In this document: positions 4,458 to 32,124 of the stretch, in pieces
Numbering within the stretch: position 1 is the first letter of the stretch
How the letters are laid out: each line of letters opens with the position of its first letter
Assembly (NCBI GenBank): GCA_026983525.1
Contig: JALWHQ010000439.1
Span: forward strand, 1-34,658
DNA length: 34,658 nucleotides
Reading direction: 5' to 3'
From: Anaerolineae bacterium
GTDB taxonomy: Bacteria > Chloroflexota > Anaerolineae > JAADDB01
Made by a program: the position numbers and the translations under genes
Notes under the pieces: generated by a model
What the model saw: the letters and a program-made list of their open reading frames with translations, nothing else
Database searches by the model: none
What the model was told of the DNA's origin: nothing

Positions 4458-5699
4458 TCATATTCGCTCCAACGCCTGCTCCAAGTCCGCGATCAAATCC
4501 TCCGTGTCCTCGATCCCCACCGAGAGGCGGACGAGTTGGTCGGTGATGCCCAGGGCCAGGCGGTCTTCGGGATCCATCTCGTAGTAACTCATGATGGCGG
4601 GCTGTTCCACCAGACTTTCCACACCGCCCAGGCTGGGCGCAATGCGCGGAATGCGCAGCGCGTCCACGAATCGGCGGGTCTCCTCGTCCGTACCCTTGAT
4701 CTCGAAGGATACCACACCCCCGAACCCACGCATATATCGGCGCGCGATATCGTGATGGGGATGCGAGGAGAGGCCGGGGTACCACACGCGCCGCACTTTG
4801 GGATGCTCCTCGAGGAAACGGGCAATGGCCAGGGCGCTGGCGTTCTGTCGCTCCACGCGCAGGGCCAGGGTCTTCAGGCCCCTGAGAATGAGATACGCCG
4901 CGCTTGGATCGACCACGGCGCCAAACATGGCCTGGGCCTCGCGCAAGGGCACAGTAAGATCCCCGCGGCCGACCACCACACCGGCAAGCAAGTCGTTATG
5001 CCCGGCCAGGTACTTGGTCACGCTATGAATGACCAGATCCACCCCGTAAGCGAGGGGCTTAAGGTTGTAGGGAGTGGCAAAGGTGCTGTCGATGATGGTA
5101 CGCACGTTGTGGCGCCGCGCAATGTCCACAAGACGTTCCAGGTCGAGCACGTAAAGGAAGGGGTTGGTGGGCGTCTCGGAGAAGATGTAGCGGGTGGTGG
5201 GGCCAATCGCGGCCTCGATGGCCGCGTAATCTCCCGGCGGGACGACACTCACGTCCACGCCCCAGCGCTTGAGGAAGGTGTTACAGAACGTCCGCGTGCG
5301 GCGGTACGCGTCCGCAGTGATGACCAGATGGTCGCCGGGGCGCAGGAGGATGAGGAGGGTCAGAGTCACCGCGGCCATGCCGGAGGAGAGCAGAACGGCA
5401 TCGTTTCCTTCGTCCAGAGCGGCGAGTTTTTCCTCGGCCGCGCGTACCGTGGGGTTGCCATATCGCCCGTACTCCTGGTGCAGGGGCTTATCCCAAAACA
5501 TGCGTTCGGCCATGAAGGATTCAAGCGCATCGGTATTGGGAAAGGCATAGGTGGACGTTTGCACAATGGGGGTCGTGACACTTCCATAGGGGTTCTGGCG
5601 CGGCTCACCCGCGTGCACCGCCTGGGTGCTCGGCCCGGGCCGCCTACACTCCCCTACCTGAAATTCTCGCTTGGCCTGGACATCTGTCCCTTGAAACAT
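4458..5699 (-). CDS. Cys/Met-metabolism PLP-dependent enzyme, probably cystathionine gamma-synthase (MetB-like)
   Basis: Motifs [37 protein letters not shown] (PLP lysine), [25 protein letters not shown]. Lies downstream of a SAM riboswitch. Confidence 0.9.
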
Positions 5700-5792: not shown

Positions 5793-5961
<169 letters not shown>

Positions 5962-7363: not shown

Positions 7364-8095
7364 TTAATCCCCAGATGGGAAGAGGCCTCTTCGCGCTCGT
7401 AGCATCCGGTAGCCCTGTGCTGTGATAGCCCAACGAGGCCCTTCGTCCGTAGCAACCTCCATCACCGCTCCCCCTGCCTTCAGACGTTCCAGAATTTCGC
7501 GCACCCGCTCCAGGGGAAGGTCCGTGTCCACGGCAAGCCCGCTTAGGGAACGCAAGCGGTAGGGGCTGCCCACCAATGCCTCCAACACCCGACGAACATC
7601 TTCATCCAAAAGCTTCGCTTTTTCGGGTTGCACCGCCGCTACGCCTATTGCCCCCTCCACTCTTGGTTCTGGAGGTCCAATTTCAGGCTCTTTCAACATC
7701 TGAATGTAGCGCTCATGGAGCGTTATGTTCTTTTGTAGCGTTTTGATCTCCTGGTCGTGTTTCTGAAGATCTTGCAACAATCGCTGGGAAACAGAGGAGA
7801 TGAAGCGTTCCGCCCCGAGGCTGGCTGCAAGGGCTATGGCGAAGAGAAGGAAAAGGTTCTCCGACAATGACGTGCTTTTGTTGGGAGATAGTATATTATT
7901 CAACACCTCGCTCCGGGTGAAGGAGAGGAAGAGCGGCACCAGAAACGCGGCCGCCAGAGAGGTCAGGAAGAACCGTAGGAATGTTCTACAGGACAAGGGC
8001 TCCTCTGATCGGGAAGCAGTGCGCACCCATCTTACTAATCCACCAAGTAAGGCGGCACTCCCAAGAACCAAAATAACGTAGGCGGCTTGCCACAT
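7364..8095 (-). CDS. YLATT-like (YEATS-associated three-TM) membrane protein with coiled coil and C-terminal winged HTH
   Basis: GGAGGTG RBS before ATG 8095. TM1 ALLGGLV, TM2 AAAFLVPLFL, TM3 ...AASLGAERFISSVSQRLL match my recollection of the YLATT pattern. C-terminal RSLSGLAVDTDLPLERVREILERL...WAITAQG is wHTH-like. Confidence 0.7.
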   Translation of the reverse strand: MWQAAYVILVLGSAALLGGLVRWVRTASRSEEPLSCRTFLRFFLTSLAAAFLVPLFLSFTRSEVLNNILSPNKSTSLSENLFLLFAIALAASLGAERFISSVSQRLLQDLQKHDQEIKTLQKNITLHERYIQMLKEPEIGPPEPRVEGAIGVAAVQPEKAKLLDEDVRRVLEALVGSPYRLRSLSGLAVDTDLPLERVREILERLKAGGAVMEVATDEGPRWAITAQGYRMLRARRGLFPSGD

Positions 8096-8131
8096 GAGGC
8101 ACCTCCCCAATGTAACGTCTATCCGTGACAA

Positions 8132-8166
8132 GGTATAGCAAATCGACGATAACAAAGTTGAAACAA
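8132..8166 (-). promoter_or_regulatory. Shared promoter/operator box, copy A (degenerate)
   Basis: Plus strand ATAGCA-N10-AACAAAGT-tga-AACAA. On the minus strand this is a direct repeat followed by TGcTATACC, upstream of ATG 8095. Confidence 0.6.
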
Positions 8167-8235
8167 CAGGGGGGTGGCGTACTGACAAGTCCACATATGT
8201 TTACGGATAGTTGTGGAGAAAGGCCGGAGGGGAGG

Positions 8236-8274
8236 CTTTTCTGTGTGCCGGGCTTCACCCGGCGCACAGAAAAG
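8236..8274. terminator. 17-bp stem-loop downstream of the 8393-9925 gene
   Basis: cttttctgtgtgccggg-cttca-cccggcgcacagaaaag. Confidence 0.6.
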
Positions 8275-8392
8275 ATCTTCTCCCCCCGCCCCGTATGGCC
8301 ACCTCCCAAGGATAAAGTTTTATTAGTCAATCAGCAAGAGGGGGAATAGGAGCAAATGTCCAATCCCCCGCTCCAAATAGAAAGGGCAAGGA

Positions 8393-9925
8393 TTATCGAG
8401 ACATAAGCGGTAGAAAAGAGGAAAAGAATGTACACGCCTTTCGCCCACTTAGTTCGTATGTAAAGGAGCGAAGTGGCCAAGAGCCCTCAATCGGCCTTGG
8501 TAACTGTATGTAGGTTGGAGAAGCGGTGGCTTGGAAGGAGATAGTCTCCACTTGGGTAGAAGGGATTTCTCCCGCACAATCGCTGTTGCCATTGGCGTCG
8601 ATTTTGACCACATACATATCTTCCTGTTGAGCGCCAAAACTCTTCGTCCACCCCCCGATGAGAAATCCTCCATCTGATGTCTGCACCACGGCTTTCGCGG
8701 TATCATCTTCAGGACCACCATAGGTTCTGCTCCATACCATGTTACCCGTGGCATCAATCTTCACCAGGTACAGATCCCTCCCTCCTCGGCCAAAACTCTC
8801 TGTGTAACCCGCCAAGACGAAACCACCGTCGGATGTAGGGGCTACAGCGTAGGCCTTCTCATCCTTAGGACCGCCATACGTACGGCTCCACACGAGATTG
8901 CCCGAGGCATCAATTTTGAGCGCGTACATGTCCATTCCCCCCACACCATAACTCTCCGTAGATCCAACAAGGAGAACCCCACCATCAAGGGTGAGCGTTG
9001 CCCCCCAAACTTCCTCGTTCTCCACACCACCATACGTGCGCTTCCACCACATGCCCCCTTTAGGGTAAATCTTTATCACGTAGATATCGCTTTTTCCCGC
9101 ACCAAAACTTTCCGTTTCCCCTATCAGCAAAATTCCCCCATCCCCCATTTGCACAGCCCCCCTCCCCACATCGTTAGATCTGCCACCATAGGTGCGACTC
9201 CACAGGGGATTGAAGGAAGCATCCAAATTGACGACATAAACATCGTATGCGCCAACACTCGTAGAGGAGGTCGTCCCTACCAAAAGGTAGCCTCCAACCC
9301 ATAAAGGGATGACCGTTAGAGCTGCATCGATATACGACCCCCTAAGAACATAGTGACGTTGGACCTCACCGTTAGCCCGGATTTTGAGCACAAACACGTC
9401 ATCCAAAGCATAAAGACCAAAAAGCCCACCTGGCATCTTTGTGGCCCCTGTAATGAGAAACCCCCCATCAGCGGTCTGAATCCCCCGCCAGGGAACATCG
9501 TCTCTATCCCCGCTGTAAGCGCGTGTCCATTGAGGATTACCAAAAGCATCGATTTTTATGGCCACAACGTCCAATCCTCGACCATTTCCGGTCGTGGCTG
9601 CCCCTAAGAGTAAAAAGCCCCCATCTGTCGCGGGGATGATTGAACTTATGCCATCCCGACCGCTTCCCCCAAAGACACGCTGAAAACGCGAGGAAGCAGC
9701 AACGAAGGATGGTTGTTGCCTGGTCGCAAATGGAGACAGCGCATCAACAGCAGAGCCCACACAGTCTACTTCATAGGAAGGGGAAAAAGGGGATACCGGG
9801 TAGAATATCCCAACCAAAACAATGGCAAACATTAACAACACCCGCCTGTAGTTTGATCTTCGCCATCGGCCATGCACCAGGCATCCACTACGGGCCAACA
9901 TGTTCCTCCTCCTATCTTTGTCCAA
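8393..9925 (-). CDS. Secreted 7-repeat beta-propeller protein (WxxTYGG...TxDGGF repeats) with C-terminal FLPLMSR tail; start uncertain (9925, 9901 or 9832)
   Basis: Basic region then a hydrophobic signal/TM segment. Seven ~49-aa repeats, a Cys-X47-Cys segment, then the terminal tail. Confidence 0.85.
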   Translation of the reverse strand: MDKDRRRNMLARSGCLVHGRWRRSNYRRVLLMFAIVLVGIFYPVSPFSPSYEVDCVGSAVDALSPFATRQQPSFVAASSRFQRVFGGSGRDGISSIIPATDGGFLLLGAATTGNGRGLDVVAIKIDAFGNPQWTRAYSGDRDDVPWRGIQTADGGFLITGATKMPGGLFGLYALDDVFVLKIRANGEVQRHYVLRGSYIDAALTVIPLWVGGYLLVGTTSSTSVGAYDVYVVNLDASFNPLWSRTYGGRSNDVGRGAVQMGDGGILLIGETESFGAGKSDIYVIKIYPKGGMWWKRTYGGVENEEVWGATLTLDGGVLLVGSTESYGVGGMDMYALKIDASGNLVWSRTYGGPKDEKAYAVAPTSDGGFVLAGYTESFGRGGRDLYLVKIDATGNMVWSRTYGGPEDDTAKAVVQTSDGGFLIGGWTKSFGAQQEDMYVVKIDANGNSDCAGEIPSTQVETISFQATASPTYIQLPRPIEGSWPLRSFTYELSGRKACTFFSSFLPLMSR

Positions 9926-9976
9926 ATTAAAGATGGGGGGAAGGAACAGTGTCCTCCCCCCTATCCTCCTCCTTAC

Positions 9977-12310
9977 TTAGCGTATGACCGCAGGCAGGTA
10001 ATGCTGTCGCGGCAGCGGATACAGCGCAAAACCAACGTCCACCACCGTGTTGGCCGCCACTTCCACCTCCACCGTCAGAGCGCTCACCACATACACCCCA
10101 CCCGGATACGCCACACTCACGGTGTAACGCCCTGGCATCACATCCACAAACCGGAAATAACCCTGAGCATCAGTCACCGTCTCACGAACCTCCGCCAGTC
10201 GACCCCACCCCAATGCCGACTCCAACCGCACTCTCAAACCAACCACCCCCTCTTCACCCGCATCCCGCTCACCATCTCGATCCACATCCGCCCATACATA
10301 CCCCTCCACGACACCCGTCGCAGGTGTCGCCGTCGCCGTCGCCGTCGGCGTAGGCGTCAACGTGGGCGTCGGGGTCGGCGTCGGCGTCGATGTCGCCGTA
10401 GGTGTCGCCGTCGGCGTCGGCGTAGGTCGCCCCAAGACAAACAGGTTGTCCACATAATACCCAGACGCCGGACTAATGTACTCTATCGTCCCTGCATCTA
10501 TCACCCGCCCAGGCAATGGCGCCTCCGCTCGTACCGATACCCACCCCCCAGGCGGCCGCACCTGCAAGCGATAGCGATAATACCCCTTGTCCTCCCACCA
10601 GAAGAGGAAAAACTGCCCATTCCCATGTGTCCTCGCTTGCTTCAACAAATCCCACCCCGCCGTGCGGGTGTTATACCCCAAAAGGTCGACCCTCACGTCC
10701 CCCATCGGCTTGCCTGACATATCCTCCACACGCCCCCAAAACCGGTAGTTGCGCACCGGTGTCGGGGATGGAGTAACCGTTGGCGTCGGGGTAGCCGTGG
10801 GAGGAGACGTTGGGGTCGGCGTCGGCGTAGGAGTGCCAGGAGCAAACGTTGGCGTCGGCGTCGGAGAGGATGTCGGCGTTGAGGTAGGGGACGGTGTAGG
10901 AGTCGGCGGCCCCACGAAGCATTGTTGAACCGGAAAAGCAAAGGTGGTAGAGACAGAGGGACTGATGCTTGACACTGTGGCATTCGTGGTTATACCGTAA
11001 GCCCCCCCTGGTGTCTGAGTAACGGAGATACTTTGCACGATGGCGTTGGAGGTGCCGGCAAACCCACATCCTGGAATATTCCCATTGGCGTCCAACTTCA
11101 ACACCCACAGATCTCCAGACATAGAGCCCGCCACGATATAACCACCATCGGCTGTCTGTTGGATAGCATTCCCTTCATCCCACCCATTATCTCCGTATGT
11201 TTTCTCCCACTGCACATTACCATTGGCGTCTAATTTCATCACCCAAACATCATACCAACCAGCGCCAAAGGAGTTAGTCCACCCGGATACAATGTAGCCC
11301 CCATCCGATGTCTGTTGGATAGCATAAAGCCTGTCCGTACCGTTACCCCCATAGGTTTTTTGCCATTGCACATTGCCATTAGCATCCAACTTTAACACCC
11401 ACGCGTCGCTAAAACCAGCACCAAAGGACAAAGTCTCTCCAGTCACAATGTAACCGCCATCTATCGTCTGTTGGATAGCGTAGCCGCGATCGTCATCACT
11501 TCCCCCATAGGCCTTTTGCCATTGCACATTGCCATTAGTGTCCAACTTCACTACCAACAGGTCATCACGCCCGGCCCCAAAAGACCGAGTGTATCCTGTC
11601 ACGATGTAACCACCGTCTGTCGTCTGTTGGATAGCATAACCATAATCAGGGCTCGTGCCACCAAAAGTTTTCTCCCATTGGACGTTGCCGTTAGCATCCA
11701 CTTTCAACACCCACACATCGTTAACCCCAAAGGAGTAAGTTCTTCCGACTACAACGTAGCCCCCGTCCGAGGTCTGCTGAACAGCAAGGCCATTTTCTCC
11801 CCCTCCGCCTCCATAAGTCTTCTGCCATTGCACATTGCCGTTGGCGTCCAACTTCAACACCCAGACATCATCATTGCCCGCGCCAAAGGAGTAGGTAGCT
11901 CCAACCACAATATAGCCACCATCCGATGTTTGCTGGATGTCTTGAGCCCAGTCGTGACTGCCTCCGCCATAAGCCCTTTGCCATTGCACATTGCCGTTAG
12001 CGTCCAACTTCAACACCCAAAAATCCCGATTACCAGCCCCAAAGGATTTGGTATACCCAGCAACGATATAACCGCCATCCGATGTTTGTCGAATTGCATA
12101 AGCCGTTTCAGTGGAGCCTCCTCCATACGATTTCGCCCATGCGGCACCGGCCATGCCTAAACCCTGTCGACTTATCGCGCCCAAACTGAGGTGCTCCGTT
12201 CCTGCCCGCGCAGCAGGCATCGTCCCCGTCACCAACATCAGCAATAGAAGCAACGCTCCCGGCACGAACTGCCACCGTAAAACACGTCGCTTCCGTACTT
12301 CCCCATTCAT
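9977..12310 (-). CDS. Secreted 7-repeat beta-propeller protein with PT linkers, a carboxypeptidase-regulatory-like domain, an SdrD-B/Cna-B-like domain and a YLPAVIR tail
   Basis: GGAGGTG RBS. Signal peptide ending PAARA. Seven WxKxYGG...QQTxDGGYIVxG...DxWVLKLDxNGN repeats. GVVEGYVWADVDRDGERDAGEEG...TDAQGYFRFVDVMPGRYTV. Confidence 0.9.
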   Translation of the reverse strand: MNGEVRKRRVLRWQFVPGALLLLLMLVTGTMPAARAGTEHLSLGAISRQGLGMAGAAWAKSYGGGSTETAYAIRQTSDGGYIVAGYTKSFGAGNRDFWVLKLDANGNVQWQRAYGGGSHDWAQDIQQTSDGGYIVVGATYSFGAGNDDVWVLKLDANGNVQWQKTYGGGGGENGLAVQQTSDGGYVVVGRTYSFGVNDVWVLKVDANGNVQWEKTFGGTSPDYGYAIQQTTDGGYIVTGYTRSFGAGRDDLLVVKLDTNGNVQWQKAYGGSDDDRGYAIQQTIDGGYIVTGETLSFGAGFSDAWVLKLDANGNVQWQKTYGGNGTDRLYAIQQTSDGGYIVSGWTNSFGAGWYDVWVMKLDANGNVQWEKTYGDNGWDEGNAIQQTADGGYIVAGSMSGDLWVLKLDANGNIPGCGFAGTSNAIVQSISVTQTPGGAYGITTNATVSSISPSVSTTFAFPVQQCFVGPPTPTPSPTSTPTSSPTPTPTFAPGTPTPTPTPTSPPTATPTPTVTPSPTPVRNYRFWGRVEDMSGKPMGDVRVDLLGYNTRTAGWDLLKQARTHGNGQFFLFWWEDKGYYRYRLQVRPPGGWVSVRAEAPLPGRVIDAGTIEYISPASGYYVDNLFVLGRPTPTPTATPTATSTPTPTPTPTLTPTPTATATATPATGVVEGYVWADVDRDGERDAGEEGVVGLRVRLESALGWGRLAEVRETVTDAQGYFRFVDVMPGRYTVSVAYPGGVYVVSALTVEVEVAANTVVDVGFALYPLPRQHYLPAVIR

Positions 12311-12427
12311 GGCTCACCTCCTAACGTGTGTGAAGTGCTGAACAGTATTCACAAAATCACACCGACTTGGCAGCAGACCTTTAATGGCCACAGAGCGCAT
12401 GAAGGGTTCATCTTCCATTGATAAAAA

Positions 12428-12463
12428 GACATAGCAGATCGGTAGGAACAAAGTGTGAACAAA
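12428..12463 (-). promoter_or_regulatory. Shared promoter/operator box, copy B
   Basis: Plus strand ATAGCA-gatcggta-GGAACAAAGTGTGAACAAA. The 19-mer is identical to copy C. Confidence 0.8.
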
Positions 12464-12609
12464 AGGCGGATATTAGGTATTGATTGGGGATTGGAGCCTA
12501 TGGGGAGGATACTTCGGAAGTTCTCGTGGATATGGGATATGGACTCGGATCCACCCCTTGATGATCGTTTGCCGGACTCACCGTTGGGTGACCACAGGGC
12601 GTTCTTTAT

Positions 12610-12645
12610 GTAGGGGGTGGGAGCGCTGCGCTGGCGCTCCCACCC
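12610..12645. repeat. GTAG-headed GC-rich palindrome (REP-like hairpin) after the 12656 stop
   Basis: gtag-g-gggtgggagcgc-tgcgctg-gcgctcccaccc, a perfect 12-bp stem. Confidence 0.55.
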
Positions 12646-12655
12646 GTGGGCTCTG

Positions 12656-14446
12656 CTACTGCATTACCGTGGGTAGGAACTGCCTCCGCGATAGCGGGTA
12701 CAGCGCAAAATCAACGTCCACCACCGTGTTGGCTGCCACATTTGCCTCCACCGTCAAGTCGCTCACCGCGTACACGCCCCCCGGATAGATCAGGCTCACG
12801 GTATAACGGCCGGGAGGCACGTTCGTGAAGCGATAGAAACCCTGGGCATTCGTGACCGCCTCCCTGACCTGAGCCTGGGATGCTTGGGCCGGCACCAACC
12901 GCACCGTCAAGCCGGCCAATCCTCCCTCACCGGCATCCCGTTCACCGTTCCGGTTCACGTCGGCCCACACGTGTCCTTGTACAGTGCCCGTGGTGGGCGT
13001 GGGGGTCGGTGTGGGCGTGGCTGCAATACATCGGACCCTGACAACAGCCGCAGGTGTGGCGACCGTCGCATTCGTGCTCCACACGCGGATGGAGGCCCAA
13101 CCTACTCCCATAGAAAGACGATCTCTTCGAACGTTGCTATTCCGCACTTCCGGAGTACTCCTGGCAAAGAGGTTGCATCCCGGAATGTCCCCCTGAGCAT
13201 TCATCCTGAACACCAGCATGTCTCCCCCGTCCACACCGGCCACAACGTAGTCGCCATTTTCGGTTTGCAGTACACTTTCTCCCCACTCGCCGCCTGGAGT
13301 CCCATATGTTTTCTGCCACTGAACACGGCCCTCCGGGGTCAACTTCAGCATCCAGACATCAATATTACCGGCACCGAAGGACCAGGTTTCTCCTACCAGA
13401 AGGTATCCCCCATCCCGTGTTTGCAGGACGTCGTAGAAAACATCGTATTCCCCTCCCCCAAACGTCTTCTCCCACTCTATGTCGCCGTTGGGTCTCAGTT
13501 TGACCACCCACGCATCGAAATAGGCACCGGCCGTCTTTGTTTCTCCGGCCAGGATAAACCCACCGTCGGTGGTCTGTTGTACGGCGTAGGCTTTGGCATC
13601 CCTACCTCGACTATACACCTGACTCCACTGGACGCGACCGTTGGCGTCCAATTTCATCGCCCAGAAATCGAACGTAGATTTCAGGGACGAACCAGCCAGA
13701 ATGTAACCACCGTCATCCGTTCCCTGAAAGTCGTTAACCGATATCGCTCTCCCTGCTTCTCCATAAGTTCTCTGCCATCGGAGAATCCCATTCCTGTCCA
13801 ATTTGAACAGCCAGGCATTGCCGTAATACTTACCAGCGATCAAGTAGCTACCATCACTCATCTCTTGGACAGCAGCGGCTTTATCGCCGCCCGCGTGCCC
13901 AAGGGTCGTTTGCCACTCGATGTTGCCGTTGGGTCCCAGTTTGACCACCCACGCATCTGACGCGCCGACACTGAATGACCAGGTAGAACCAGCCAGGATA
14001 TAGCCACCGTCCGTCGTCTGCTGAATAGAATGGACCTCTTCATCCGACGGGCCTCCATACGTCTTTTGCCACTCAATCTCTCCTTCGGGGTCCAGTTTGA
14101 TGACCCAGATGTCTTGATTTCTGGTTTCGCGGTACCACATGTGGCCGGCCAAAATGTACCCCCCGTCCGCGGTCTGTTGGATGGTATGAGCTTGTCCATA
14201 TTGCCCCTTCGTGCTGCTCTCATAACTCTTTGCCCATAGGGAACTTCCTGTGGCGCGGTTCATCACACAGGGCGTGTTGAAACTATCGCTCCCGGCAATG
14301 TATGAGATACTCGCCGTAACCTTACTTCCGCCCTCTGCTTGGGCCTGGGGGATAAACCCTGCTAACAAAATCCACACCAACAGAACCGTTCCCAAAACTA
14401 ACCGCCAACGCATCAAACCCAGGTTGTGGTCTCTCACTTCCATCAT
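12656..14446 (-). CDS. Secreted 7-repeat beta-propeller protein with PT linker, SdrD-B-like domain and FLPTVMQ tail
   Basis: AAGGAGGTG RBS. Signal peptide ending PQAQA. Seven repeats, GDIPGC...RC, then GTVQGHVWADVNRNGERDAGEGG. Confidence 0.9.
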   Translation of the reverse strand: MMEVRDHNLGLMRWRLVLGTVLLVWILLAGFIPQAQAEGGSKVTASISYIAGSDSFNTPCVMNRATGSSLWAKSYESSTKGQYGQAHTIQQTADGGYILAGHMWYRETRNQDIWVIKLDPEGEIEWQKTYGGPSDEEVHSIQQTTDGGYILAGSTWSFSVGASDAWVVKLGPNGNIEWQTTLGHAGGDKAAAVQEMSDGSYLIAGKYYGNAWLFKLDRNGILRWQRTYGEAGRAISVNDFQGTDDGGYILAGSSLKSTFDFWAMKLDANGRVQWSQVYSRGRDAKAYAVQQTTDGGFILAGETKTAGAYFDAWVVKLRPNGDIEWEKTFGGGEYDVFYDVLQTRDGGYLLVGETWSFGAGNIDVWMLKLTPEGRVQWQKTYGTPGGEWGESVLQTENGDYVVAGVDGGDMLVFRMNAQGDIPGCNLFARSTPEVRNSNVRRDRLSMGVGWASIRVWSTNATVATPAAVVRVRCIAATPTPTPTPTTGTVQGHVWADVNRNGERDAGEGGLAGLTVRLVPAQASQAQVREAVTNAQGFYRFTNVPPGRYTVSLIYPGGVYAVSDLTVEANVAANTVVDVDFALYPLSRRQFLPTVMQ

Positions 14447-14526
14447 CCACCTCCTTCATGATCTTCTCGCTCCCCGCCTGAGCAGGCAATGGGACACATT
14501 GGGAAACGGCCGGAACAACGAGCAAA

Positions 14527-14568
14527 CCTTGGGGTGACGGGAACGTCCTCTTGCCCGCCACCCCAAGG
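14527..14568 (-). terminator. Stem-loop just after the RCC1-repeat gene
   Basis: Minus strand ccttggggtggcggg-N12-cccgtcaccccaagg followed by tttg. Confidence 0.5.
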
Positions 14569-14575
14569 AGAACGT

Positions 14576-17233
14576 TCACCACAGCATGATAGGCAGCCAG
14601 TGGTGTTTCAGCGGCCGCGGAGAAACGTTGGGAATGGAAAGACGGAAGCCATCCCCCTCGCGCGGCCGCAAGGGGGCGCGGTTGTCCACACGCAACACAG
14701 TCTGAGCGCGGTATGTGCCCGCCCGCACTTCGATCAGGTACTCGCCCGGGGAGAAGGGCACGGACAGGAAGAGCACCATTTCGCCCGAAGGCTTGAAGCG
14801 GAGGCCATTCCTTACTACTCGGCCGTTGACCAGCAACTGGGCTGCCGCGTTGGGCGGGAAGTTCCAGGCCCACAGGGTGAACCAGCTACCGGGACGACCG
14901 GTGCGATAGTTGAGCCGTACTTCGGGAATGGTCTGGTTCAACACGGGCACGGGCTTGCGCTGGAGCGCGCCCCGCGCCCGTCCCAATTGCCCATAACCAT
15001 CCCATCCCCAGCAGAGCACGGGCGCGGTAGTGGCAGTGGTCACTAACGCACACGTGTAATCCTGCCCGGCCGTTACCGCCGTCACCCCCGCAGTAAGGTC
15101 TGGAACGGGCACCGGCCGCGGGCTGTTGCCCCAATCACCGTTACCCAATTGCCCCAAACCATTGGCTCCCCAACACCGGAGTGCACCATTCCCCAACAAA
15201 GCGCAGGTGTGCCGCGCGCCCGCGGCCACAGCCGTGACACTGCCGAGTCCTACCACGTTGACAGGCGCCCGTCGGGAAATAGTTGTTCCATCGCCCAACT
15301 GGCCGTAGGCATTATCGCCCCAACAGCGCACCTTGCCGTTGGTCAGCACCGCGCAGGTGTGAACAGTTCCCGCAGTAATGGATTTTGCTCGGCCGCCCAA
15401 GTTCACGACCTGCACCGGCCTATTGCGGGACGTTTGAGTATTATCGCCCAGTTGCCCGCGCGAGTTATCTCCCCAGCAACGCACAGAACCGTCCTGGAGC
15501 AGCGCGCAAGTGTGATCGTTCCCTGCAGCAAGGGCCACGGCTTTCCCACCCAGGTTGACCACCCGCACAGGGGTGGAACTGTTCTGCGTGGTGCCGTTGC
15601 CCAGTTGTCCCGTCCAGTTAATTCCCCAGCAGCGCACCGAGCCATCGCGCAGGAGTGCGCAGGTGTGAGCATTGCCCGCGACCACCGCGGTAGCCTGTCC
15701 CCCCAGGTTCCTGACCCGCACGGGCGTGTGTCGCTCTTGGGTGGTGCCATCCCCTAATTGGCCGGCAAAATTGCTGCCCCAGCAGAACACCGCGCCATCT
15801 TCCCGCACCGCGCATGTGTGCCCCCATCCTGCGGTCACCGCGATGGCCCGGCCGCCGAGGTTCACCACGCGTGCGGCCCGAAATCGAGCCCGCGTGGTTC
15901 CATCACCCAGTTGGCCGGATGTGTTGCTCCCCCAACAGCGCAGGGATCCATCCTCCAGGAGGGCGCAAGCGTGGAACCCGCCGGCAGCCACGGCCACAGC
16001 CTGTCGCGGCAATCCGAGGACGTGGCGGGGCATACTACTGGCCGCCGGAGAACTGTTCCCGAGTTGACCAAACGTATTGCTTCCCCAACAGCGCGCGGTG
16101 CGGTCTTCCAACACGGCACAGGCGTGGTCGCCGCCGGCAGCGATCTGCCGCACGCGGTCGCGCAACCCCAGGACGCTGACCGGTCGGTTCCTATCGGTCG
16201 TGGACGCGTTGCCCAGTTGGCCGCTGCCGTTCCGCCCCCAACACCGCACGCGGCCTGCTTCCAGAAGAGCACAGGTGAAGGAACCGCCTACGGCGAGGGC
16301 TTTGGCCTTGCCGCCCAGGTGAACGACGGACACCGGGGTCAGCCGCGTGGACCACGTTCCATCCCCCAGTTGACCGGCAAAATTGCTGCCCCAGCAGCGC
16401 ACGCTGCCGTTCTTCAACAATGCGCAGGTGTGGAAACTGCCAGCGCCAATGGCCACGGCCTGTCCGCCCAAGTTGGCGACCGGTCGCGGGGTCGTTTGTT
16501 GGGCCAACGAGCCAATTCCCAGTTGCCCGAATCGGTTGTTCCCCCAGCAGCGTGCGGAACCGTTCTGTAAGAGAGCACACGTGTGGATGTAGCCTGCAGT
16601 AATCGCAACGGCTCGCCCACCCAGGTTGGCGACGCGCACAGGTCGAGAGCGATTGCGCGTGGTACCGTCCCCCAACTGGCCGTACCAGTTATTCCCCCAA
16701 CAACGAACCGAGCCATCTTGGAGCAGGGCACATGTGTGGGTGGCCCCCGCGGCCAGGGCGATGGCTTTCCCGCCCAGGTTGATCACCCGCACAGGCCGGG
16801 GGCTGTCACGCGTGGTGCCATCCCCCAACTGGCCGTCCCCGTTCGCGCCCCAACAGCGCACTGCCCCACCTTGCAGGAGGGCGCACGCGTGGGATCCTCC
16901 GGCAACCACGGCAACGGCCACACCCCCCAAGTTGATAACGGGAGTGGGAACATGGCTGTCAATAGTCGTACCGTTGCCCAACTGCCCTTTCGTATTCTTC
17001 CCCCAGCAGTACACCCTTCCTCCTTGCACCAGGGCGCAGGTGAAATCAATACCTCCCGCGATATGCTGGATGTTGGGCAAAGGGGAAGTCGCGGTCAAAG
17101 CCGTTCGTTGGGTAATAGGCCGGGGTGTACCAATCAACACGTCAGCCTTTACTGGAAGCGGCGCGAGAACGAACAAACTGTTCACGAGAAGGAAGATATG
17201 GAGCCACGTCAGTACGGATTTTGTTCTGAGCAT
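14576..17233 (-). CDS. Secreted RCC1-repeat (RCC1/BLIP-II-like) protein with 14 repeats, a C-terminal beta-sandwich-like domain and a WLPIMLW tail
   Basis: GGAGG RBS before ATG 17233. Signal peptide ending PVKA. I count 14 AGxxHTCAL..GxVRCWGxNxxGQLGxG repeats. Confidence 0.92.
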   Translation of the reverse strand: MLRTKSVLTWLHIFLLVNSLFVLAPLPVKADVLIGTPRPITQRTALTATSPLPNIQHIAGGIDFTCALVQGGRVYCWGKNTKGQLGNGTTIDSHVPTPVINLGGVAVAVVAGGSHACALLQGGAVRCWGANGDGQLGDGTTRDSPRPVRVINLGGKAIALAAGATHTCALLQDGSVRCWGNNWYGQLGDGTTRNRSRPVRVANLGGRAVAITAGYIHTCALLQNGSARCWGNNRFGQLGIGSLAQQTTPRPVANLGGQAVAIGAGSFHTCALLKNGSVRCWGSNFAGQLGDGTWSTRLTPVSVVHLGGKAKALAVGGSFTCALLEAGRVRCWGRNGSGQLGNASTTDRNRPVSVLGLRDRVRQIAAGGDHACAVLEDRTARCWGSNTFGQLGNSSPAASSMPRHVLGLPRQAVAVAAGGFHACALLEDGSLRCWGSNTSGQLGDGTTRARFRAARVVNLGGRAIAVTAGWGHTCAVREDGAVFCWGSNFAGQLGDGTTQERHTPVRVRNLGGQATAVVAGNAHTCALLRDGSVRCWGINWTGQLGNGTTQNSSTPVRVVNLGGKAVALAAGNDHTCALLQDGSVRCWGDNSRGQLGDNTQTSRNRPVQVVNLGGRAKSITAGTVHTCAVLTNGKVRCWGDNAYGQLGDGTTISRRAPVNVVGLGSVTAVAAGARHTCALLGNGALRCWGANGLGQLGNGDWGNSPRPVPVPDLTAGVTAVTAGQDYTCALVTTATTAPVLCWGWDGYGQLGRARGALQRKPVPVLNQTIPEVRLNYRTGRPGSWFTLWAWNFPPNAAAQLLVNGRVVRNGLRFKPSGEMVLFLSVPFSPGEYLIEVRAGTYRAQTVLRVDNRAPLRPREGDGFRLSIPNVSPRPLKHHWLPIMLW

Positions 17234-17289
17234 AGCGTTAGCCTCCGGGTTGGGTATTAGAGATTGGGAAATTAGGGAATCGGATACAG

Positions 17290-17331
17290 GGGCCGAAAAA
17301 CCGACGTCGGGCATCTCCGATTTTTCGGCCC
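17290..17331. repeat. Intergenic palindrome beside degenerate heptamer repeats (17250-17285)
   Basis: gggccgaaaaa ... tttttcggccc (11-bp stem) enclosing the palindrome ccgacgtcgg. Confidence 0.6.
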
Positions 17332-17340
17332 TGGGACACT

Positions 17341-18198
17341 TCAACGCACGGCTGCAGGCATGTACTGGCTATAGGGCAGCGGATATATGGGAAATGGCAC
17401 CTCCGTTCGCCGCCCAGCCACCACCTCAATCTCCTGGCTTAACACCCGCACCGGGTATACCCCGCCCGGGTAGACCAGGTTGACGGTGTAGCGGCCGGGT
17501 GAGACATCGGTGAAGCGGAAGAAGCCCTGGGCGTCGGTGACCGTCTGCCGAGTCTGGCCCAGGCGTCCTTGCGCCTGGGCTGGCACCAGTCGCACCGTGA
17601 GGCCCGCCAGCCCTTTTTCATCGAGGTCGCGCTCGGCGTCTCGGTCCGTGTCTGCCCACACGTAACCCTGCACCGTGCCTGTGGTGGGCGTGGGGGTGGG
17701 AGGCGGAGCGCCTACGAAGCACTGCTCCCTGGGGGAAACGTTGGTGGTGATAACCGTGGCGGCGCTGTCTTCCATTGTGGCACTGGTGCTCGCAACCGAG
17801 GCGTTCGTCGTTGCTCCGGTAACGGTGGTGCCTCGCACGGTGACGTCTGGCGCGCGGACAAGCCCACATCCTGGAATGTCGCCGTTGGCGTCTAACTTCA
17901 ACACCCACATATCCTCCCAGCCAGCGCCGAAGGATTCGGTCTTCCCAACCACAATGTAGCCCCCATCTGTCGTCTGTTGAACGTCATAGGCTATATCAAG
18001 GGCGGATCCCCCATACCTCTTCACCCATGCAATACTCGCCGCGCTCAACTCTATGGCCCTTCTTCCCTCACTCGGTATCACAGAAAGCCCCGCTCGCACG
18101 GGCAGGGAGGACCCTACCACCAAAACCAGCCCCAGAACGGTTACGCTCAACGCCAGGAGCGGTCTCTTCAGGTGTTGATGCCACACAACCTCTCTCAT
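17341..18198 (-). CDS. Secreted paralogue with only one propeller repeat, the Cys-X48-Cys segment, an SdrD-B-like domain and a YMPAAVR tail
   Basis: Signal peptide ending PVRA. A single WVKRYGG...WVLKLDANG unit is joined directly to DIPGC. ATGA overlap with the upstream gene. Confidence 0.85.
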   Translation of the reverse strand: MREVVWHQHLKRPLLALSVTVLGLVLVVGSSLPVRAGLSVIPSEGRRAIELSAASIAWVKRYGGSALDIAYDVQQTTDGGYIVVGKTESFGAGWEDMWVLKLDANGDIPGCGLVRAPDVTVRGTTVTGATTNASVASTSATMEDSAATVITTNVSPREQCFVGAPPPTPTPTTGTVQGYVWADTDRDAERDLDEKGLAGLTVRLVPAQAQGRLGQTRQTVTDAQGFFRFTDVSPGRYTVNLVYPGGVYPVRVLSQEIEVVAGRRTEVPFPIYPLPYSQYMPAAVR

Positions 18199-18710
18199 GG
18201 CATCCCCCTTTCACTTTCCACATCTACACGGAACGACTTGTTTTTGTTTTTGTCAAGCCTTTGGGCAGTACCCCGGCTTACCGTAGAAGGTGGGAAAAAG
18301 CGACGTTTGTCCTGCTCATATGGTTCGCCGGTGGCAATAAAGTGCTCGATGAAGGCAAAGGTGTGGTCGGGCACGTGGGCTTGCAGCCACATGCGGTACG
18401 CGGCCGTAAAAAAGAGGGCCCACAACAAAAACAAGCCCATCGTGCCGGCCAACGCTCTGTCCACCCATCGGCCAAAGCGAATGTCCACGGCCAACGTATC
18501 CTCTGTGGTGGAGAGGGTGACGTTCAGCGTGGATGAGATGCCCAAAACGGACCGCCACACTTCAGCCTGCCGCACTCGAATTACCCTCCGGTTCTCTGCA
18601 GGCTCCACCACGCGGGGGGCGTATCCTCCTGCTTGATACCAGGCGACAAGCGCATGGACGAGTCGGGGCACGTCCACCCCGGCAGATTTGTAAGTGCGAC
18701 GATGCGTCAT
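18195..18710 (-). CDS. Hypothetical membrane-associated protein (171 aa)
   Basis: ATGA overlaps at both ends (18707-18710 and 18195-18198). WRSVLGISSTLNV...GRWVDRA...LFLLWAL resembles a family I recall as often carrying a zinc ribbon, which is absent here. Confidence 0.75.
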   Translation of the reverse strand: MTHRRTYKSAGVDVPRLVHALVAWYQAGGYAPRVVEPAENRRVIRVRQAEVWRSVLGISSTLNVTLSTTEDTLAVDIRFGRWVDRALAGTMGLFLLWALFFTAAYRMWLQAHVPDHTFAFIEHFIATGEPYEQDKRRFFPPSTVSRGTAQRLDKNKNKSFRVDVESERGMP

Positions 18711-19021
18711 GCGTCCGCTCCCGTATCCTGAGTCCCGGGTGGCAGGGATTGATGGTTGGCTTGCTGGTACAAGAAGGCGCTTTGCAGCGCGTGCAGGACG
18801 GTCAGTTCGACCAGAAGTTGGGTGACCAACGCGTGTTGGTCCTCGCTCAGTTGCCTCTCGACCTGATACATGATATCGGCCACGCGCCTGGCCTGCGCCC
18901 GAATATCCTCCAGGCGAACGTCCCCCTCTTTCAGCGCGTGTTCCCACATTTCGATGCGTTCGAGGTAGGACTGAAAAACGTGCTCGTCGCCCTCGTCGCT
19001 GAACCAGCTAGCGAATGTCAT
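18707..19021 (-). CDS. Hypothetical acidic helical protein (104 aa), first gene of the operon
   Basis: GAAGGA RBS. Directly downstream of promoter box C. Stop overlaps the next start. Confidence 0.75.
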   Translation of the reverse strand: MTFASWFSDEGDEHVFQSYLERIEMWEHALKEGDVRLEDIRAQARRVADIMYQVERQLSEDQHALVTQLLVELTVLHALQSAFLYQQANHQSLPPGTQDTGADA

Positions 19022-19244: not shown

Positions 19245-22200
19245 TCAAATCATCTCCCCCCGGCGCAGGCGTTCGGCCAGCCATTCGGTGAGCGCGGAGG
19301 GGCCCACGTCCAACTCCCGTGCCAGCGCAGCGCGCGCCTCCTCGTACACGGCCAGGGCTTGCGCACGTTCCCCCAGGCGGGCAAGGGCCCGCATCTTGAC
19401 CTGATAGGCGGCCTCCACCCAGGGTGCCACAGCCAGCACGCGGTCGGCCCACAAAATGGCCTGGCGGAACTCGCCCCCTTCCAGGTATCGCCGCGCCACG
19501 AAGAGACACCCCTCCTGGTATAGGCGTTGCCAGCGTTCGTCACGCTCTACCCACCAGGTCTCATAGGGGGCAACACTAACGGGCGGGGCCCATGCTTCCA
19601 GGGCTTGCACACACGCCTCAAGGGGTGGCGGCGCGTCCGGGCGGTCTTCCTCCTCCAAGGCGTTCTGAACGGTCCGCTCGAACACTTCCACGTCCACCCA
19701 CACCCGATCTTCCGGGTCAAAGGTGAACACGTCCCAAGTGGTAGAGAGATAGCGAATCGGCCCCTTAGCGCGCATGTAGGGTTCCAGCACCTGCCGCAGC
19801 CAACTGAGCAGGCGGCGGAGGGTCTGCGCGGCTTGTTGGGGATTCTGGTCCGGCCAGAGGTCCGCGAGGATGCGATCGCGGGTCAGGGGCTGGCCGCGAT
19901 GGAGCACGAAGTACTGGAAGAGCCGCACGACAGCCGGCCGGGGCCAGGCGCTGTCCGGGATCTCCGTGTCCCCACGCCAGACGCGAAACGCGCCCATGAA
20001 CTGGACTCTGAGCGGGGGCGGGGGCAGGGCTTCCAGTCGTTTGAGGGCCTGTTCCATGGCCGCGCGCACGTGCGCGTTCTTTTCCCGCTTCAGGCCGCGT
20101 TGTAACGCGGGCATGGCCTCCTCCCGTTGGGTAGCCTGTAACGCCCACGCGGCCCGCCGTCGCACCGCGGCATCCGGCGCCAGAAGGAGATCCTCCAGGC
20201 CCGCCACGCGGCCGATGCGTCCCAGCGCCTCGATGACCATCTCTTCCTCGTAACCCAGAAGCAAGGCCACACGCCAAACCTGGAACCCCAACTCCGGGTC
20301 GCGGTCCGTCAGCACGGGGCGCAAACGGGGGAAGCGGCGTAAGACGTGAAGGAGCGCGCGCAGGTGGCGTCGTGCCTCCGGACGCCCTTCCCGATGGCAG
20401 CGCCACGCGAGCAGACCGCGCAGGCGGATGAGGCTCGGCAGCGCGCGCGCCTGGATGAGGAAGCGCGTGTCCGGGTGCAGGGGCGGTGGAAGCGGGTAGG
20501 CTTCGGTGGCCGCAATGTCGCGCTCCAGCGCGACCAGGGCGCGTGGGAAAGGCGCGTCCCAGGGTTGGTTCAGGGCCTCCTCAGCAATGCGCACGGCCTC
20601 CTCGGGGCGTCCCTGGCGCCGGGCCAGCCAGGCCCGCAATTGCGCCAGGCAAAGGTGACGGTCATTGCGTCCGGCAACGTGCGCTTCTGCCTGGGCGAGC
20701 GCCTTCTCGGCGTTGTCCCACTCGCCTATTCCGATGTGGTACAGCGCCCAGTAATAGAAGCGCCAGAAATTGCTGGTCGTATCGACCGTTTCCACTTCTT
20801 TCACAAGCCCTTCGAGTTCTGTCAGCACTTTTCTGATCCGTTCCCATGCCCCCGTTTCCGCGTACAAGGCCACCCACTGCTCCAGGTAAATCATGCGGGG
20901 CGATGGCCTCTCCTGGTAGTATGACCTATCCTGCTCCAGCAGCGCTTCAGCTTCCTCTAAGTACCCCATAGGCGCGAGGACGTTGGCGGCGAGGTTACCC
21001 CGTTGGTAGAGAGCGATGGTTTCGTGCCCCATCTTTTCGGCGATGGGGATAGCCGCGCGGTAGAAGTATCGCGCTCTGGGAAAGTTTCCGAGCAAAGCGT
21101 AAACGTTGCTGAGAAGAACGGCTGCACGAAACCGGTATTTGAGATCCGTGGCCCCATCCCATAAACGGTGGCCGTATTCCAGGGCTTTTTTGTACCGGCC
21201 TGTCAGAAAGCAGACCTGGCCAAGCGCGTGATAAGCCTGGCAGGTGGCTTCTGGGTCTCCACGGGCCTCCAGAAGCCGTGCTCCCTCGATGACCAATTGC
21301 CATCCTTCTTCCTGCGCTCCCGATGAGCAGAGTTCCGCGGCCAACCGCGTCAGTAGAATCGGATGTCTCTCCCGGTAGGGTTTTGGCAGGCCGAGGATCC
21401 AGCGGCGGTAGGTATAGACGCGATTGGCATCCCAGATGACTTCCATAGGCATGTCGAGGAGCAGCCGCGTGGCCTCGTCCCACAGTTCGTCGGTGAGAGC
21501 CTGTTCGATGGCCAGGTCGTAGTCGTTGCGCCGGTGGAACCAGGTGACGATGTGGCGGGCGATGGTTTTTCGATCGGATGTCTGCGCGCGGAGAAAGGCG
21601 CGAAACAGTTCATGGTAACGCCAATATCCCTCCCGGGTGCCTGGGTCCACAAAGAGACGCCGTCTCGCCACTTCTTGCCAGATGTGTCGCGCTTTTTCCT
21701 CCGCGTCGGGCATGCCCATAGCCTGCCACAGGTGTATAGCCATGTCCGGGGAAAACTGAAGGGCCACGCCCGTCAATTGCAAAAAAGCGCGCACATCCTG
21801 GGGCAACGTTTCCCACAGGCGTTGAAAGATGTGGGTGTGCAGGTACGCCTCCAGGGACGTTTCGATGTGCTCGGGAGCCGTGTACAGGTGGGCGATGTGA
21901 ACCAGGGCGGCGATGGCGAGGGGCCAGCCGCCTGTGCGCGCGTGCCAGGCCCGACTCTGCTCTGCCGTGTAGCCGATAGGGCGGAGCCAGCGGGCCACTT
22001 CCTCGGGCGTCAAAGCCAGATCGCGCTCGGTGAGGTAGGTGGTAGGGAGGGCGTGCAGGGCGTGGGCCAGTGGCGTGGGCAACCAGCGACCGCTGAGGAC
22101 CCACCGCTCGGGCGCGGCGCGAATGTGCTGGACGAGCCAGTCCAGGGCCTGGTCCGCGCCTTCCAGAACGTGAACGTCGTCCAGCAGAATGGGCGACGAG

Positions 22201-22451: not shown

Positions 22452-22564
22452 TGGGGGTTCAACCCTTACTTGCAAATAGATGACAAGTACGTTGGGTTTT
22501 AACCTGAAGGTCCTAAATATTCCGAGGAAACTGACGCACCAGGCAGTGGGGATACTTCCCGCAT

Positions 22565-22596
22565 AACACAAACGGGCGGGCACTCAGGCCCGCCCG
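22565..22596 (-). terminator. Probable terminator after the tRNA
   Basis: Minus strand cgggcgggc-ctgagt-gcccgcccg-tttgtgtt. Confidence 0.6.
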
Positions 22597-31362: not shown

Positions 31363-31369
31363 AACTCCC

Positions 31370-32093: not shown

Positions 32094-32124
32094 GGTGTTA
32101 TCCCCTCGTTGAGTGCAAGGGCAT

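Follow-up and report, generated by a model that had tools for sequence, protein, structure and literature searches.

Why should exported-type proteins built on two unrelated folds end in the same handful of residues? This question is raised by a stretch of 34,658 nt from an Anaerolineae bacterium of the phylum Chloroflexota (GenBank assembly GCA_026983525.1, contig JALWHQ010000439.1, positions 1 to 34,658; hereafter the window, meaning this whole stretch), in which the minus-strand run 8393-18198 consists of five consecutive genes for large exported-type proteins, each closing with an aromatic residue, Leu or Met, Pro and four further residues. A preliminary description made from the sequence alone had taken this tail for a candidate sorting signal, possibly a terminal beta-strand recognized by an anchoring or export partner in the envelope. 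In the analysis reported here, the shared tails of the window are real and far beyond chance, and the sorting-signal reading is well supported by comparison: every comparative test that was run (restriction to the protein end, occurrence in at least 61 contexts, exported cargo) came out in its favor. We consider it reasonably likely that the tail is a sorting or retention tag read by a putative envelope factor, and we describe it as a lineage-specific, modular C-terminal tag of Sec-exported proteins of filamentous Chloroflexota, found under Anaerolineae- and Chloroflexia-type labels.

Five tails in one window

Four of the five proteins are SBBP/delta-60-type propellers and one carries 14 RCC1 repeats, in line with the two unrelated folds first described; the five C-termini and the placing of Pro fifth from the end are exact in all five translations, and the three different terminal domains were recovered as well, namely SdrD_B in three proteins, a GxPGS immunoglobulin (Ig)-like module in the RCC1 protein, and a Cys-bracketed segment in a protein of 510 amino acids (aa). 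The last of these is encoded by gene 1 (8393-9925, minus strand as all five; tail codons F-L-P-L-M-S-R at 8396-8416, minus strand, then TAA), whose 510 aa are counted from a TTG codon, the true start being uncertain, and end in SSFLPLMSR. NCBIfam models delta_60_rpt and Lepto_SBBP_lipo both remain below cut-off on this protein, Pfam gives no match, and its C-terminus is the Cys-bracketed segment after the propeller, with the tail immediately next. Gene 2 (9977-12310; Y-L-P-A-V-I-R at 9980-10000, minus strand, then TAA) specifies an SBBP propeller with Pro/Thr linkers, SdrD_B at aa 671-741 and the end QHYLPAVIR; its signal peptide finishes, by eye, with ..AARA at aa 36, and two orthologues (P0122, 97% identical, and P0123, 80%) keep an identical tail. 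Gene 3 (12656-14446; F-L-P-T-V-M-Q at 12659-12679, minus strand, then TAG) encodes an SBBP propeller with SdrD_B at aa 492-561 and the end RQFLPTVMQ, the most divergent tail of the five, with R at positions -9 and -10 from the C-terminus.

Gene 4 (14576-17233) encodes the protein with 14 RCC1 repeats, matched in Pfam by RCC1/WD40_RLD, followed by the C-terminal GxPGS Ig-like module and the end HHWLPIMLW. Its open frame extends to a TTG at 17344, and the start is most likely the ATG at 17233, which gives 885 aa and matches the database entry P0150. The C-terminal cassette (14579-14971, minus strand) is made of an Ig-like sandwich, a conserved 'APLRPxEGxG...P' linker and the tail (W-L-P-I-M-L-W at 14579-14599, minus strand, then TGA), and this WLPIMLW aligns column for column with the YLPLVxR of cassette relatives. 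The module scores 35.2 bits against NCBIfam NF058592, for which the curated cut-off is 45, and several cassette relatives exceed that cut-off (L065 with 88.3 bits, P0266, P0272 and P0278). Gene 5 (17341-18198; Y-M-P-A-A-V-R at 17344-17364, minus strand, then TGA) encodes one propeller blade, SdrD_B at aa 178-248 and the end SQYMPAAVR. All of its 285 aa align at 94% identity with a 590-aa protein (P0124), and the comparison makes gene 5 look like an internal-deletion derivative which has lost most blades while keeping signal peptide, SdrD_B and tail.

All five proteins begin with a signal-peptide-like hydrophobic N-terminus, as judged by eye and by a crude hydrophobicity rule. Two other exported proteins of the window are tail-free: an SH3 protein (26847-27794), whose N-terminus resembles a lipoprotein signal by eye, and a GH5-like protein (25072-26883), with hydrophobic stretches visible close to both ends. 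Among the 631 stop-terminated window frames of at least 30 aa, the expression [YFW][LM]P.{4}$ matches the five tail genes (5 of the 46 frames of at least 200 aa) and none of the remaining frames, and with a per-position chance of 4.3e-4 for the three fixed residues, taken from the composition of the five proteins, about 0.3 matches would be expected. One could also suppose that there is no feature here at all and that the likeness arose by chance, by recent duplication in the window or through some DNA element located where genes end. In favor of this are the SdrD_B ends of genes 2, 3 and 5, which are paralogous (59-66% identity over the last 115 aa), so that the five tails count as about three independent contexts rather than five. 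The frame counts stand against this explanation, to which we assign a negligible probability, and so does the recurrence of the tail far outside the window.

Consensus, register and range of the tail

The last 131 aa of the RCC1 protein were used as query in a HMMER (phmmer) pass over 1.84 billion cluster representatives, which returned 305 relatives at E<=1e-3; the tail statistics cover the best 150 of these 305, the window's own protein included. The strict motif stands at the end of 87 of the 150, a looser form at the end of 32, and 31 have no such end. The widespread consensus is (often R/K)-[VIL]-[YF]-L-P-[LVA]-[VIL]-x-[RK]-COOH. Counted back from the C-terminus over the 87 strict tails, position -8 holds V in 35, I in 18 and L in 14; position -7 Y in 70, F in 16 and W in one; position -6 L in 86 and M in one; position -5 Pro in all 87, having been picked by the expression; position -4 L in 45, V in 13, A in 10 and I in 8; position -3 V in 42, I in 23 and L in 11; position -2 is variable; and position -1 holds R in 69 and K in 12. 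The same picture emerges from an alignment (A1) built with no tail filter, where Pro is never replaced and the consensus residues before it are Y and L.

The distance to the C-terminus is as characteristic as the residues, with four residues after Pro in 98 of the 150 relatives, five in 14 and six in 5. When the motif is taken with its terminal R or K, it lies exactly at the end in 81 proteins and 1-9 residues before it in 13, and it occurs nowhere internally across the 75,909 residues of the set, where shuffled sequences give 1.55 matches. The GxPGS Ig-like module, linker and tail recur together as a cassette; in 133 of 147 relatives it stands at the C-terminus, and where it is internal the tail is mostly missing. 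By comparison with this consensus, the window tails are divergent local members of a widespread Chloroflexota motif.

The range of the tail was sampled by scanning the DNA of species genomes for a single narrow form of it, [IVM]YLPL[IVM][LQH]R with T[AG][AG] after it, written as a degenerate pattern. The scan gave at least 120 loci, so that taxon range and per-genome counts are those of a sample and not of a census, and the counts that follow refer to the matches listed. In Chloroflexota-titled records lie 91 of the 120, with 58 Anaerolineae-type labels (including Caldilineales, Thermoflexales, Ardenticatenaceae and Promineifilaceae), 29 Chloroflexia-type labels (including Roseiflexus, Chloroflexus, Herpetosiphonaceae and Oscillochloris) and 4 phylum-only labels; no Dehalococcoidia, Ktedonobacteria or Thermomicrobia label is among the matches listed. 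An open reading frame (ORF) of at least 90 aa is closed by 84 of these 91, six are cut by the sequence end, and one (L087) closes a 58-aa ORF. The preliminary description had held such ends to be frequent in Chloroflexota, and both the 84 ORF-terminal matches and the 87 strict tails among the best 150 relatives confirm it. Outside the phylum, 28 of the 29 matches listed are not at an ORF end, nine of them reading TGG and the rest closing ORFs of 9-85 aa. Taken together, 84 of the 85 ORF-terminal matches listed bear a Chloroflexota title; the 85th (L088) is titled Elioraea, has 31 of 32 displayed residues identical to Roseiflexus proteins, and probably stems from a mis-binned contig.

Two groups of the remaining matches have a character of their own. 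In Planctomycetota (L011, L029, L044, L051, L055 and L099) the peptide word lies inside a conserved '..LLDRLK.ARPD..DW.RL..IYLPLIQRW', read through TGG and not at the protein end, and in Alteromonas-type gammaproteobacteria (L007, L025 and L105) a conserved closed frame of 23 aa ends in the word, this frame probably being out of frame over a conserved gene.

Modularity is evident from what precedes the tail. The 100 residues before the 84 tails listed fall into 61 single-linkage blastp groups (E<1e-3), and in some proteins a bare Pro/Thr linker leads directly to the tail (L022, L093, P0126 and P0208). Several loci per genome were obtained even with the narrow pattern: among the matches listed, a metagenome-assembled genome (MAG), isolate R24_80, has four (L002, L058, L081 and L086) and seven others have two each, and the 533 ORFs flanking scan tail genes include a single additional strict-tail ORF. 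At the DNA level, the tails are free. The Tyr codon is TAT in 44 and TAC in 40 of the 84 listed, every Leu, Pro and Arg codon which the pattern allows is present, the stops are TGA in 34, TAG in 26 and TAA in 24, and the 30 nt downstream show no conservation (at most 0.13 bit per position). With synonymous codons and all three stops in free use and the DNA behind them unconserved, selection acts on the protein and not on the DNA; the three paralogous window ends (genes 2, 3 and 5), although 59-66% identical, keep the aromatic-[LM]-P and its spacing. Chance and a DNA element are thus refuted by the window counts, the relatives, the scan ORFs and the codon variation, the relatives being drawn from clusters of at most 50% identity and the 84 listed ORF ends from other genomes.

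A basic residue is frequent in front of the motif as well, R or K occupying position -9 in 27 of the 84 scan tails listed (5% background, p=3e-15) and position -10 in 13. A hydrophobic core with R/K at the end and this basic flank might suit a physical anchor that needs no partner, in which a hydrophobic stretch between basic residues sticks to the membrane or to an anionic wall polymer, and the lack of any machinery gene found near the tail genes would be understandable as well. We hold such an anchor to be unlikely, given that a sticky end would need neither the near-invariant [YF]-L-P nor the fixed four-residue distance (98 of 150), and that two or three strongly hydrophobic side chains in seven residues are few for membrane binding by estimate, not by computation.

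Cargo, structure and genomic surroundings

Domain searches on 59 tail ORFs from the scan placed Pfam domains in 42, and every family is typical of secreted or surface proteins. The cargo comprises peptidases (C25 in four ORFs, S8 in two, M4, M14 and Trypsin), other enzymes (Amidase_2 and GDSL lipase), repeat or adhesin-type proteins (Beta_helix/NosD, DUF11, FG-GAP, PKD, CARDB, Calx-beta, Flg_new, TIG, Big_9 and SBBP) and a binding protein (SBP_bac_5). None of the NCBIfam models of known sorting signals matches any of the 59, and seven carry NCBIfam choice-of-anchor J, Q or Z domains above cut-off. The term choice-of-anchor denotes surface proteins which, depending on the organism, have LPXTG, PEP-CTERM or type IX secretion system (T9SS) anchors, according to the available text of the source (bioRxiv 10.1101/2023.03.06.531300). 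By the crude rule, 16 of the 21 complete tail ORFs have signal-peptide-like starts, as compared with 27 of 91 neighbor ORFs (one-sided Fisher p=1.2e-4), and so do 34 of 45 cassette relatives of 250 aa or more with an initial M, and a cytoplasmic control family of the same phylum bears the tail in 0 of 120.

One kind of cargo speaks to the purpose of the tail. ABC-type peptide/nickel binding proteins occur with it (L043:1767-3437, minus strand, and P0151), and the former opens with a hydrophobic signal and shows no lipobox Cys within its first 60 residues. Since such a protein has to remain close to its transporter, and thus cell-associated, its tail favors a retention role. A family of small tailed signal-peptide proteins of about 90-125 aa (L041:1439-1762, minus strand; L064:2004-2375, minus strand; L073:1722-2024, plus strand; L112 and L118) has repeated 'GGY.L.GGFW'-like motifs; a Peptidase_S74 (endosialidase chaperone) ORF adjoins the L073 tail gene and also the unrelated FG-GAP/DUF11 tail gene of L042.

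The proteases among the cargo invite another interpretation, in which the tail is a mark for maturation or turnover and carries no address: an extracytoplasmic C-terminal protease (tail-specific, HtrA- or carboxypeptidase-type) would trim, activate or degrade the protein. An enzyme which reads protein ends would be suited by the constant spacing from the C-terminus and by R or K as the last residue (81 of 87), many of the cargos are proteases, commonly in need of controlled activation, and one is an M14 carboxypeptidase (L010). An HtrA-like Trypsin_2-PDZ protein is encoded next to one tail gene (L032), and this is the only such neighbor among 59 loci. Non-zymogens such as adhesin-like repeat proteins, binding proteins and amidases bear the tail too, PDZ-type readers of protein tails prefer a non-polar last residue where this one is R or K, and the true sorting domains found at the equivalent place in relatives from other phyla point to addressing. 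On balance, a turnover mark strikes us as improbable.

One set of such relatives comes from a whole-protein search with gene 5, which was dominated by propeller repeats: 119 of 120 propeller relatives are without the tail, the single exception being gene 5 itself, and 19 of the 120 carry the T9SS domain PF18962. A relative of the GxPGS cassette (P0246) likewise has a Por_Secre_tail at 63.7 bits, far above the cut-off of 23. In relatives from other phyla, then, T9SS or other anchors stand where the tail stands here, a substitution consistent with the sorting-tag reading.

Structure models bear on whether the tail might instead serve the domain before it. AlphaFold models the gene 4 cassette (27-row alignment) as an Ig-like sandwich with a mean predicted local distance difference test (pLDDT) of 91.2, onto which the conserved linker packs with a strand at residues 110-112 (pLDDT 86-95), and the tail leaves it as coil, with pLDDT dropping from 70 to 52. 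The SdrD_B end of gene 5 (five-row alignment) reaches a mean pLDDT of 84.1 with strands up to residue 102, and its last six residues average 47. A fold search with the gene 4 cassette gave generic Ig/CARDB matches only. The terminal beta-strand first proposed is thus not borne out by either monomer model, both of which give coil or low confidence for the tail, and a strand might still form upon binding. Among relatives, the linker from SdrD_B to the tail varies in length and the register of the tail to the C-terminus is constant; low-pLDDT coil and variable linker with fixed register together indicate a freely hanging linear motif which is predicted to be flexible and no part of the fold. A structural end-cap, stabilizing the preceding beta-sandwich or helping it to fold with no role in localization, would be in keeping with the many tails that follow Ig-like or SdrD_B-type sandwiches and with the cassette linker that packs on its domain in the model. 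Low-confidence coil in both modeled contexts speaks against it, as do the 61 unrelated contexts, including bare Pro/Thr linkers, and a linker to the domain that varies in length at a constant register to the C-terminus; the end-cap is in our judgment very improbable.

The surroundings of the tail genes give a less specific picture. The genome is a Thermoflexus-related one of the Chloroflexota: the window's UbiD-family decarboxylase shares 87% identity with a protein of a 'Chloroflexi bacterium' MAG and 75% with one of a Thermoflexus sp. Directly upstream of gene 5 an ORF on the minus strand (18195-18947; probable start ATG at 18710, one hydrophobic helix) has a stop that overlaps the gene 5 start codon; no Pfam or NCBIfam family was found for it, the Atlas search assigns it to an uncharacterized cluster commonest in Chloroflexota, and it is regarded as context for the tail genes, any membership in a tail system being putative. 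Directly upstream of the tail-gene cluster, on the same strand, lies the gene of a 1112-aa regulator (19245-22583) with AAA-like, TPR and HEAT regions and OmpR-type DNA-binding and BTAD/SARP domains, which may control the tail-gene cluster. Between the gene 2 stop and gene 1, a GC-rich hairpin of ten pairs with a T-rich run behind it (9936-9961, minus strand) is terminator-like, so genes 2 and 1 may be separate transcripts. Just downstream of the cluster, the product of 7364-8194 (minus strand) has a three-transmembrane domain of the YLATT kind (PF20303, 59.9 bits). The G+C content is 0.52-0.57 over 8001-14000 against 0.61-0.66 in the flanks, and GC skew is strongly negative in the propeller genes (-0.14 to -0.21), which may reflect repeat composition or foreign origin. 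Elsewhere in the window, all on the minus strand, an S-adenosylmethionine (SAM) riboswitch (5793-5961, 86.2 bits) precedes a gene (4458-5699) for a pyridoxal phosphate-dependent enzyme of Cys/Met metabolism, a tRNA-Lys (CTT) gene (22617-22692) sits between the regulator gene and coaBC, and within 30532-32144 a HEPN-domain protein gene (31695-32144) overlaps by four bases the start of an ORF (30532-31698) for which no family was found, an arrangement that resembles a toxin-antitoxin pair.

Known sorting systems and a possible mechanism

Eight attributes of small C-terminal sorting signals have been set out by Haft (bioRxiv 10.1101/2023.06.07.544157, section 5), and against that section the tail shows attributes 1, 2, 3, 6, 7 and 8 and lacks 4 and 5. 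The position is terminal (attribute 1), with 81 tails exactly at the end, 13 extended by 1-9 residues and none internal, and all five window tails in place; there are several copies (attribute 2), five in the 34.7-kb window and up to four loci per MAG among the matches listed; and the signature is short (attribute 3), [YF]-L-P being near-invariant. A signal peptide is found in most members (attribute 6), namely, by the crude rule, in all five window proteins, in 16 of 21 tail ORFs and in 34 of 45 relatives; similarity does not extend outside the signal (attribute 7), as the 61 groups before 84 listed tails indicate; and homologues in other lineages are signal-free or anchored differently (attribute 8), witness PF18962 in 19 of 120, P0246, and the choice-of-anchor domains in 7 of 59. 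The transmembrane segment of attribute 4 is absent, with four residues after Pro in 98 of 150 relatives and in all five window proteins, and the cluster of two to five basic residues of attribute 5 is represented by a single terminal R/K in 81 of 87 strict tails, R ending three of the five in the window. The claim of the preliminary description that the tail has no transmembrane helix or basic tail was accordingly right in its first half and only partly so in its second.

With the signals LPXTG/sortase, PEP-CTERM/exosortase, PGF-CTERM/archaeosortase, GlyGly-CTERM/rhombosortase and MYXO-CTERM/myxosortase, as treated in that section, the tail shares the extreme C-terminus, the short Pro-containing signature and the occurrence of several per genome. 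Like these tripartite signals it sits on unrelated signal-peptide cargo whose kin in other lineages bear other anchors, and it even repeats in miniature their order of signature, hydrophobic part and basic end. Tripartite sorting signals span roughly 25-35 residues, the Chloroflexota tail 7-9. Unlike them the tail has no transmembrane segment but two or three hydrophobic residues after Pro, and one basic residue rather than two to five; no cognate enzyme is known for it, and the known membrane processing enzymes would find nothing to hold. The view that it is neither LPXTG nor PEP-CTERM proved sound, on account of the missing membrane segment and of T at the fourth motif position in 1 of 87. 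As a sortase substrate of the LPXTG kind it offers L-P, with V, I or L at the fourth position in 76 of 87 and the protein ending two residues later, and PEP-CTERM or a related class is ruled out for a tail without a transmembrane segment.

The T9SS provides a closer parallel in cargo than in signal. Its repertoire of C25, S8 and M4 peptidases, PKD, CARDB, FG-GAP and beta-helix proteins recurs here, its domain in propeller relatives sits where the Chloroflexota proteins bear the tail, and PorU-like C25 peptidases are present and themselves tailed. The T9SS signal, in contrast, is a folded domain of about 80 residues with an outer-membrane translocon, the tail an unfolded heptapeptide; no Por_Secre_tail/PF18962 match was found in the five window proteins or the 59 tail ORFs. 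The attachment of Braun-lipoprotein type to the wall uses a C-terminal lysine as linking residue, which does not fit tails ending in K in 12 and R in 69 of 87 and in K in none of the window's five. An outer-membrane beta-signal, whose aromatic last residue closes a beta-barrel, was set aside too, as the last residue is R/K in 81 of 87 and W in one (the window's own), and the domains, propellers and sandwiches, are soluble.

C-terminal address tags of very small size, read together with the free carboxyl group, are known from other settings, namely the peroxisomal targeting signal 1 (PTS1, -SKL), KDEL and the cargo-loading peptides of encapsulins. They resemble the tail in consisting of few residues at a fixed C-terminal distance on unrelated cargo with no membrane segment, and differ in that they act on cytoplasmic or ER-lumen (endoplasmic reticulum) cargo, whereas the tail is found on Sec-exported envelope proteins and its motif is unrelated. 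WxL, LysM, GW, SLH and CWBD modules differ from the tail in being folded domains, or repeats, with sizes from tens of residues to nearly two hundred, and none was detected in the five window proteins with Pfam and NCBIfam. In the available text of a survey of single-membrane bacteria, these are the non-covalent wall-retention modules (PMC3415414); as the tail would, they retain signal-peptide proteins at a cell surface with no outer membrane, and the WxL motif is also scored by C-terminal location. A further difference from the T9SS is that filamentous Chloroflexota are reported to have no outer-membrane biogenesis genes, in the available text of bioRxiv 10.1101/2025.08.19.671072. No description of such a C-terminal tail of Chloroflexota was found in a literature search, and in the main text of the Haft preprint (bioRxiv 10.1101/2023.06.07.544157), whose supplements could list further signals, the string 'Chloroflex' is absent. 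By sequence comparison the tail thus lies outside the LPXTG, PEP-CTERM, related and T9SS classes, yet by every comparative criterion it looks as if it did the same job.

How might such a tag work? The protein would cross the cytoplasmic membrane by means of its N-terminal signal peptide, and the unfolded tail would then hang off the last folded domain or a Pro/Thr linker. A dedicated component of the envelope would recognize this short linear motif along with the free C-terminus close by, and would hold or fasten the cargo in the outer layers of the filament's envelope, perhaps cutting the tail off. Having no membrane-spanning segment, the tail cannot be read by an intramembrane sortase of any known kind, and the sharp preference for exactly four residues after Pro and for R/K as the last of them suggests that recognition includes the free end. 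What the comparisons establish is the motif with its register to the C-terminus, its modularity, taxonomic range and exported cargo, selection at the protein level and predicted flexibility; a sorting or anchoring role, a protein reader and any cleavage are what we infer. By analogy, the tail would in function stand where LPXTG, PEP-CTERM or the T9SS domain stand in other phyla.

A more specific version draws on the PorU-like C25 peptidases. Three of them are tail-tagged (L005:1-1734, plus strand; L045:508-2529, minus strand; L048:3-2024, plus strand; in Thermoflexus, Chloroflexaceae and Anaerolineae records), score 150-253 bits against the PorU model NF033707, for which the cut-off is 420, and can be aligned to PorU 6za2_A, with the catalytic His/Cys motifs GHG and TC retained. 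T9SS-type attachment enzymes are surprising in organisms reported to have no outer membrane. A wall-located, tail-tagged transpeptidase of this type could remove the tail and link the cargo covalently to the shared outer layer, which would be a counterpart of T9SS attachment needing neither a folded sorting domain nor a membrane-embedded sortase; the tail would then be the substrate label of a protein-sorting pathway not recognized so far. This version as a whole seems to us improbable. The PorU-like peptidases may be ordinary cargo.

Several points weigh against the sorting-tag reading as a whole. A hydrophobic membrane segment and a multi-residue basic cluster are common to all small sorting signals described in the section cited (bioRxiv 10.1101/2023.06.07.544157) and are absent from the tail. 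The anchoring or export partner postulated for the tail found no support in gene neighborhoods: no recurrent Pfam family appears among the 103 ORFs flanking 59 tail genes, which are a housekeeping mix, and the neighbor genes in the window are uninformative by Pfam, NCBIfam and Atlas. The window tails are weak against the consensus, with scores of 8.1 (tail 2, the highest), 5.7, 3.2, 1.3 and -1.9 at the non-selected positions, where controls have a median of -7.0 and a 95th percentile of 5.9; just one exceeds that percentile and one is below zero. Of 94 motif-bearing ends, 13 (14%) are extended by 1-9 residues, a poor fit with a strict reading of a free carboxylate, although easier to tolerate if the tail is cleaved. 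The signal-peptide rule is crude and no trained predictor, flagging 30% of neighbor ORFs; the taxon range and per-genome counts belong to a sample, and the labels to the submitters' record titles.

If the sorting-tag reading is true, its meaning lies in the envelope of these bacteria. Filamentous Chloroflexota have been seen by cryo-tomography with a shared outer layer and a lattice-like protein layer, and genes for the machinery of beta-barrel assembly (BAM) and for lipopolysaccharide (LPS) are reported absent, in the available text of bioRxiv 10.1101/2025.08.19.671072; a layered envelope of this kind would give a label both a destination and a need. The tag would bear on how filamentous Chloroflexota place proteins in their multilayered envelope. 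Borne by a large and varied exoproteome, the tail would offer a simple sequence rule that predicts the surface proteome of an abundant and mostly uncultured phylum, and a handle on the machinery by phylogenetic profiling or peptide pull-down. It would possibly be the smallest bacterial surface-display tag known, with 7-9 residues, and would widen the concept of the C-terminal sorting signal past the tripartite membrane-spanning design as set out in the cited section.

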